Source: Eledone cirrhosa (taxonomy: Eukaryota). From it: a stretch of DNA of 64,000 nt. Positions 18,135-18,348 of this stretch are shown piece by piece. The stretch lies in assembly GCA_964016885.1 (NCBI GenBank), contig OZ024753.1, positions 38,750,001 to 38,814,000 of the forward strand, written 5' to 3'. The stretch's first letter is position 1, and the number at the start of each line of letters is the position of its first letter. The notes below the pieces were generated by a model. It made no database searches. It worked only from the letters and a program-made list of their open reading frames with translations, and was not told where the DNA came from. The translations under genes and the position numbers were made by a program.

Positions 18135-18348
18135 AAAGAGTCATGACCCTGACGGCTGAGCTCCGGCCGTTTCGACAGCTAGATCTGAACTGAGCCACTG
18201 GTGGGTTAGTTTGGATTTAGCTGTCGAAACGGCAGGAGCTCATCCGTCGGGGTCTAGACTCTTTTCCTATTACCCACTCTACTACCCTATGTATCGAGTA
18301 CTTCGGTGCGTTATGGTCCACCTAGTATCTTACCACACCTCCTTTGTA
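18135..18348 (+). mobile_element. PLE-like end (family A) inverted around HHR helix II. Other copies: 9511-9690, 14146-14352, 38062-38255, 44093-44225. Tail-only: 87-123, 2590-2641, 3253-3348 (-)
   Basis: Shared GUCGAAACGGC..GAGCUCA.CYGUC-RGGGUC half-hammerhead, then the tail TACCCACTCTACTACC..GTATTGAGTAC..TATGGTCCACCTGGTTCCTTACCAC joining (TA)n. Confidence 0.8.

Follow-up and report, generated by a model that had tools for sequence, protein, structure and literature searches.

The back-to-back repeats of one family (family A) in a 64-kb window of AT-rich, microsatellite-rich, animal-type DNA, the window being the whole stretch analysed, are real short insertions and likely the ends of a Penelope-type element. 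The two arms of such an insertion are likely separate copies, both ending within a predicted ribozyme at the place where the RNA of the element probably starts. We give a slightly better than even chance to a mechanism in which priming occurs from both target ends, the cDNAs run off at the RNA 5' end in helix II of the hammerhead, and the products are joined through 0–5 nt of microhomology. The structures themselves belong to a known kind of element, whose inverted ends and tails have already been published. A first-pass annotation of this DNA was mostly right in what it observed and mostly wrong in the mechanism it proposed, a fold-back of nascent cDNA on the ribozyme hairpin.

The four palindromes reported there (from 9511, 14146, 18135 and 38062) are present at 9511–9616, 14147–14272, 18134–18265 and 38064–38174, and lie far beyond chance: the folding energy of the 18.2-kb palindrome has z = −16 against 200 shuffles, and no palindrome with 50-bp arms of at least 80% arose in any of ten Markov simulations of the 49,588-nt microsatellite-free sequence. 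Self-comparison confirmed all four as members of family A and added the insertions at 44094, 3348, 2590 and 87, which had been missed and the first of which contradicts the fold-back reading. These eight, a tally that omits diverged tail look-alikes at 3085 and 44628, are the only insertions seen whole in the window. A head-to-head inverted, 5'-truncated copy is carried by five of them (termed two-armed here, with an inverted arm of at least 18 nt), and the tail side ends in (TA)n in all eight. As annotated, the helix base differs between copies (GACAG/CUGUC or GACGG/CCGUC); these are two subfamilies, and the subfamily letters agree between the arms of one copy. That the palindromes are fold-back artefacts of assembly or library construction is scarcely conceivable, given that arms differ at 2 of 55, 5 of 53 and 10 of 61 positions in palindromic copies and that opposite-strand joints of the family occur in contigs as well as in raw reads from two studies.

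Positions within the family are numbered from the G of GAAAC (+1), the preceding base being −1. Downstream of GAAAC the direct arms read as the 3' half of a type I hammerhead, with helix III, a GUC site after +23 and the 3' strand of helix I; GAAAC, a 5-bp helix III (in majority letters) and the GUC site are all present in family A. The family thus likely holds a hammerhead 3' half with a predicted cleavage site, in keeping with the earlier assignment, although an Rfam search of the window at gathering score returned no hammerhead. Missing from all eight insertions is the 5' strand of the core, and in the palindromes the place of helix I and the core is taken by the reverse complement of downstream sequence, as had been noted. 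The lost strand had been described as CUGANGA; its absence stands, whereas its identity may be different, as discussed below. The axis had been placed in the helix closing on GAAAC, which holds for the main axes of the four palindromes: these lie in the helix II 3' strand, where the junctions cluster, between two GAAAC copies separated by 20, 25, 52 and 31 nt. A further axis of the 14.1-kb copy falls within the loop of helix III. Coordinates are collected in the table.

Table. Features of the family-A insertions in the window; positions with a minus sign or plus sign in the remarks are counted from the G of GAAAC (+1).
Feature	Position	Strand	Remarks
18.2-kb copy, inverted arm	18126–18198	−	from near the proximal terminus (A-run slippage at outer end) to −25
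18.2-kb copy, direct arm	18197–18347	+	starts at −29 in native loop; 2-nt overlap (AC, 18197–18198) with inverted arm
Initiator-like motif YYANWYY	18206–18212	+	its A (18208) is −18, the candidate RNA start; putative function
Native outer helix II stem, 3' strand (predicted)	18212–18225	+	from the loose end before 18197, pairing by eye
Hammerhead 3' half (predicted)	18226–18254	+	from sequence
GAAA within hammerhead 3' half	18226–18229	+	
Helix III (predicted)	18229–18233 with 18243–18247	+	
Cleavage site (predicted)	after GUC (18248)	+	
Helix I, 3' strand (predicted)	18249–18254	+	
Proximal terminus (CCTAT)	18266–18270	+	outer end of inverted arms; putative first RT start
One-sided tail	18271–18347	+	about 75 nt, to distal terminus beside (TA)n
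9.5-kb copy	9510–9690		inverted arm ends at −18 if one base was lost; direct arm from −5; 2-nt overlap
14.1-kb copy	14145–14354		four segments
14.1-kb copy, segments 1 and 2	14145–14171 (inverted), 14168–14199 (direct)		axis in helix III loop; 4-nt overlap
14.1-kb copy, segment 3	14201–14218 (inverted)		18 nt, without anchoring at proximal end
14.1-kb copy, segment 4	from 14214–14219 to 14354		direct
38.1-kb copy	38061–38256		inverted arm ends at −18 (38121); extra C (38122); direct arm from −12
44.1-kb copy	44093–44222		inverted arm ends at −18 (44152) allowing one C>T; direct arm from about +50, past proximal terminus; arms have 3 nt in common
Copy without long inverted arm	3250–3348	−	starts 2–3 nt past the predicted cleavage site
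Tail-only copy	2590–2643	+	within (TA)n
Tail-only copy	87–124	+	

The position of the axis speaks for the fold-back reading, namely that a cDNA copies the whole helix II hairpin, folds on it and primes its own second strand, thereby deleting the core strand. Self-priming has already been published as an explanation of Penelope inversions, the junction palindromes of these elements having been interpreted in this way (PMC3846280), and the family-A data argue against it. In the 18.2-kb copy the direct arm does contain the inverted one, and the centre (18174–18225), taken in the annotation for a native helix II, does have four G-U-type pairs: its 25 pairs comprise 20 Watson–Crick, 4 G-U and 1 other, compared with 31, 1 and 4 among the 36 pairs outside. 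However, the G-U share of mismatches (4/5 inside, 1/5 outside) is not significantly different (Fisher P = 0.21), the mismatch rates are similar (5/25 and 5/36; P = 0.73), and the majority letters of the family close all five mismatches and convert all four G-U pairs to Watson–Crick pairs. In public reads placed on this copy (runs X18 and X19, respectively), the majority letter is C at 18212 (1,905 of 2,253 and 2,053 of 2,396), at 18217 (2,262 of 2,431 and 2,359 of 2,618), at 18186 (626 of 787 and 836 of 978) and at 18205 (1,000 of 1,702 and 1,138 of 1,822, yet only 41% by depth in X1), and A at 18192 (400 of 597 and 425 of 713). Transitions private to this copy account for the G-U pairs, two of which go back to a single CpG (18186 and 18212) that decayed in each arm. 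Editing of A to I was rejected as their source, an A>G change being found in only one of the four, and so was an origin of the two arms from two source RNAs, since arm and tail of this copy carry similar loads of private changes.

The reads also bear on what a native helix II looks like. The axis of the 18.2-kb copy is crossed by only 39 and 48 reads, as against about 2,300 at 18212, and the left half is covered largely by reverse placements of the same strand, which shows the two halves of the centre to be copies of a single sequence. Before 18197, 904 reads of X19 (agreement 0.91; they may stem from one locus or a few) diverge into a different sequence, which supplies a strand able to form 11 bp, with a single bulge, with positions −4 to −14, followed by an inner stem and loop; this pairing was drawn by eye, without a folding program. 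Its 5' strand lacks the complement of the stretch from −15 to −21, which the left half of the 18.2-kb copy carries. The loose end, of which 30 letters are visible, begins with TAAG, which fits the end of a U3-A8 core, so that judging by these letters, the last of the core, family A may have the U3-A8 variant, UUGANAA, rather than CUGANGA. A fuzzy search of the window for the native 5' strand gave 3 matches against 3.8 expected. The centre of the 18.2-kb copy is not a native helix II, and a complete native loop and 5' strand stands at the axis in none of the five two-armed copies; with containment of the inverted in the direct arm failing in three of the five as well, snap-back on the ribozyme helix is already largely refuted, and we regard it as barely credible.

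This containment follows from where the arms end. Inner ends of the palindromic copies fall between −5 and −29. The direct arm reaches −5 and the inverted arm −17 or −18 in the 9.5-kb copy; the corresponding ends are −12 and −18 in the 38.1-kb copy, and about +50 and −16 to −18 in the 44.1-kb copy, where the arms have only those few letters in common that are given in the table. In these three of the five two-armed copies each arm holds sequence missing from the other, and so neither templated the other. An inverted arm, being without the tail, cannot template a whole direct arm, and for a direct arm to template an inverted one, it must extend inward no less far. The direct arm of the 18.2-kb copy does so (−29, compared with −25), but self-templating at its 2-nt overlap needs a 2-nt loop or a later loss of 8 nt. 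In the 14.1-kb copy the inner inverted piece of 18 nt lies wholly within what the direct arm covers and has no anchor at either start site; it is the only good candidate for a short self-copy.

Such a case would be at home in a scheme of two primings in which one of the cDNAs folds back on a micro-stem of 2–3 bp, distinct from the ribozyme helix, extends by self-copying and then anneals to the other cDNA, a scheme close in spirit to the self-priming of PMC3846280. The 9.5-kb junction, which fits a 2-bp stem with a 10-nt loop, and the agreement of arms in subfamily letters are also in line with it. It cannot yield the 44.1-kb copy, in which the direct arm starts past the end of the inverted arm, it has to invoke for the 18.2-kb copy a 2-bp stem with the tiny loop just mentioned or the later loss, and it leaves the ends at −18 unexplained; we consider it unlikely. 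Being silent on why ends fall at −18, it can coexist with an RNA start at that position, and a microhomology join of overlapping arms is indistinguishable from a micro-fold-back of 2–3 bp. Palindromes are unstable in replication, and the asymmetries might be put down to perfect or longer palindromes that lost their centres after insertion; indeed, the centre of the 18.2-kb copy can be read as the native inner stem and loop minus 8 nt. Long near-perfect palindromes persist in the window, however (190/192 and 163/163 pairs), and deletion accounts neither for a common limit at −18 nor for the extra C of the 38.1-kb copy, which makes later loss a very improbable source of these structures.

Three of the five inverted arms end at −18, cleanly in the 38.1-kb copy, with a 1-nt loss in the 9.5-kb copy and with a C>T change in the 44.1-kb copy, and the direct arm of the 14.1-kb copy is readable from −18 with one mismatch. 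Three coincident ends have P ~0.015 under an even spread over 25 positions, and 0.21 if 1 nt of slack is allowed; against a fixed limit counts the 18.2-kb copy, which passes −18 on both arms. Position −18, 18 nt ahead of GAAA, is occupied by the A of a YYANWYY motif, whose chance of occurrence is 0.0095 per position. YYANWYY is the initiator consensus. Away from contig ends, depth in X1 declines from 91,033 at −13 (18186) to 7,963 at −19 (18192), a drop that may in part reflect clipped alignments, since 18192 is also the site of a private mismatch. The single C that follows the −18 end in the 38.1-kb copy matches neither arm and is as expected opposite a cap, by analogy with L1, for which an untemplated base opposite the cap (a cap-derived G) has been reported (PMC9341517). 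Penelope pLTRs contain a transcription start and initiator-like sequences (PMC3846280, PMC8557442), and from the DNA ends of the insertions we infer an RNA start at −18.

Among the opposite-strand joints of the family listed, 11 of 15 have one side at 14219–14227, and four of these 11 have the other side past the proximal terminus; they count as no more than consistent, because outer ends are hidden, symmetric junctions are under-detected, and 14219–14220 and 14268 are clipping points. Among the junction rows listed for the 18.2-kb copy with letters between the two sides, three of 12 are readable with a direct arm from −18. In X1, the consensus of 82 contigs with loose ends before 14220 (agreement 0.49) gives a faint indication, by eye, of an inverted arm upstream of native letters that extend to −18. 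One inversion junction, joining 14220 to 14308, has a depth of 256 (X1) and 419 (X2) compared with about 10 for single junctions, and was likely recurrent through a 5-nt microhomology or else amplified as a unit. A pile of read ends at 14221 (7,217 and 9,366 molecules) was rejected as a biological end; it sits on AATT and was taken to be a restriction site of RAD libraries, whose depth was left out of copy counting.

A different cause for the clustering of inner ends would be an enzyme that, after priming from both ends, halts on the long helix II of a full-length RNA, the stalled ends then being joined. The native stem of about 11 bp with its inner stem (by eye), the concentration of ends in the 3' strand of helix II and the direct arms of another family (C), which begin in helix II in two of three copies, would suit such stalling. 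It predicts ends at the base of the stem, whereas most lie at −12 to −18, where the outer stem is already unwound, and a sharp limit on an initiator-like A runs counter to it, as do the axes of families B and E at 2–4 nt from the core start and of family D at 78–87 nt upstream, past their helix II. We hold stalling to be improbable.

These other families also show what inversion does to the ribozyme. Junctions of families B, C and F do fall in or beside the hammerhead, as annotated (C and F by eye). In families B and E the axes lie 2–4 nt from the core start and CUGANGA is kept on one arm, and the two palindromes of family D (9103–9487, 385 bp, and 13539–13890, 352 bp; 97–99% perfect) are centred 87 and 78 nt upstream of the core, each arm having a complete hammerhead (9208, 9382, 13637 and 13792). 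Family C has a near-complete motif at 270–358, its direct arms beginning specifically in the helix II loop in those two copies (junctions by eye), and family F, found at 51783–51930 (−) and 6084–6228 (junctions by eye), includes a complete U3-A8 minimal hammerhead at 51892. Core loss is therefore a property of family A and not a rule of inversion, and the proposal that insertion inactivates the ribozyme as a rule does not survive, the palindromes of D, B and E retaining CUGANGA.

Several neighbouring features may be recorded alongside. Each family-D palindrome shares a (TA)n-rich patch with a family-A copy, two further complete hammerheads of other families lie at 41366 (+) and 14011 (−), and a 216-bp palindrome at 34462–34677 (98% perfect, with a short one-sided tail) sits in (TA)n, a descriptor search having found no hammerhead in it. 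An apparently intact LINE occupies 21317–26629 (+), with a 625-aa frame without Pfam match and a 1,100-aa frame matching endonuclease, RT and zf-RVT. At 17867–18093 lies the tRNA-like head of a repeat (Rfam tRNA, 29.6 bits), probably a SINE, with relatives at 14825, 34215, 39000, 44900 and 62900, and at 10680–12600 a minisatellite array of about 1.9 kb.

The outer ends of family A are fixed at two sites about 75 nt apart. In four of five copies the start of the inverted arm is precisely CCTAT (+43 to +45), next to (AT)n, and in the fifth it lies within a few bases of this; direct arms extend about 75 nt beyond this proximal terminus, again against (TA)n, to distal ends at about +117 to +122 or a few nt further. 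Across the family, 2,863 of 22,447 and 2,887 of 25,593 reads, and 65 of 15,456 and 61 of 16,652 contigs, continue as (AT)n immediately beyond the proximal site. By analogy, the one-sided tail is a Penelope tail, and the two fixed outer ends resemble the two known RT starts of Penelope-like elements: a Penelope-like protein of the anole cuts and extends both target strands, and in vitro its two RT starts bound the tail (PMC11167929). The copy at 3250–3348 (−), given its start close behind the predicted cleavage site, might be a copy of a self-cleaved RNA, which is only suggestive.

In the two-ended scheme favoured here, a reverse transcriptase, likely Penelope-like, would act on a cut (TA)n target, whose two ends would prime at the proximal and the distal site, respectively. 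Both cDNAs would run toward a capped RNA start at the initiator-like A (−18); since the RNA would start there, the 5' strand of helix I and the core would never be in the template, and because both arms end in helix II the palindrome axis falls on it. Microhomology of 0–5 nt would then serve to join the two cDNA ends, the direct arm often being shortened in the process, and copies that pass −18, such as that at 18.2 kb, would come from a longer RNA or a downstream repeat. A more tentative proposal, to which we accord somewhat less than an even chance, is that transcription starts within helix II, so that the capped 5' end carries half a ribozyme and cannot cut itself while the downstream repeat can, and that each of the many short palindromes unites two run-off cDNAs, comparable to retroviral strong-stop DNA, whose synthesis was primed at the two ends of a single break. 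If this is true, the positions of the RNA start and of both RT starts can be read from the genome with single-base precision.

Family A shares much with published elements. Endonuclease-bearing Penelope-like elements likewise have a head-to-head inverted truncated copy, a one-sided tail, a junction palindrome and a microsatellite target (PMC3846280, PMC8557442), their inverted 5'-truncated copies, tails and (TA)n targeting having been described in PMC8557442. Family A differs in consisting of remnants of about 190 nt only, in its tail of about 75–80 nt (published tails have 30–40 nt) and in junctions that lie within the hammerhead. No ORF with telomerase-like RT and GIY-YIG was seen beside the copies among 210 frames of at least 90 aa, with the Pfam scan covering the two long LINE frames. 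With the Hydra clade the family has in common (TA)n insertion, a predicted type I hammerhead near the 3' end and G10.1–C11.1 beside the core; its helices II and III are longer than in the listed motifs (PMC8557442), and the clade is also defined by RT/EN motifs (RWK, DKT, no CCHH), whereas family A is known from non-coding remnants alone. Short family-A terms have no match in the supplement of that paper. PAc (Poseidon, green anole) resembles family A in its two RT starts bounding the tail, in the cutting and extension of both strands and in a template of uncleaved RNA, the family-A arms likewise crossing the predicted cleavage site; its ORF begins at stem II, and the portions of the report covered here do not treat inversions or a 5' limit in the ribozyme (PMC11167929). 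Minimal and U3-A8 hammerheads of Penelope pLTRs, the latter core variant having been described for these elements, have the same type I layout, but in family A helix III has 5 bp, helix II is long and interrupted, and the insertions retain the 3' half only; opposite-strand hammerhead pairs 100–700 bp apart have been noted in these pLTRs (PMC4209133).

Twin priming of LINE-1 consists of two primings and a microhomology join. The 44.1-kb copy with its abutting, non-overlapping arms is like its products, whereas most family-A copies have overlapping arms, and the family has two fixed starts and no poly(A) tail. A non-LTR retrozyme, which consists of tandem units with a complete hammerhead each (10.64898/2026.07.22.740005), was rejected as an identity for family A, whose copies in the window are single and without core. 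Also rejected was a MITE or DNA transposon with terminal inverted repeats, the right tail of about 75 nt being unpaired and the arms meeting at a variable centre. Exact family-A patterns had no locus in metagenome, prokaryote or viral collections, and no longer family-A locus emerged from these exact-pattern scans. Junctions or an RNA start inside helix II were not found in published work, in a search from which subscription literature was mostly absent.

The origin of the inverted ends of Penelope-like elements has stood between a published suggestion of self-priming (PMC3846280) and an in vitro extension of two strands from two starts (PMC11167929), and the family-A copies favour two primings. 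Reading the limit at −18 as the start of the RNA predicts, to the base, a capped RNA end 18 nt before GAAA. If true, this would also provide an explanation for how the 5' end of the element can be spared by its ribozyme.
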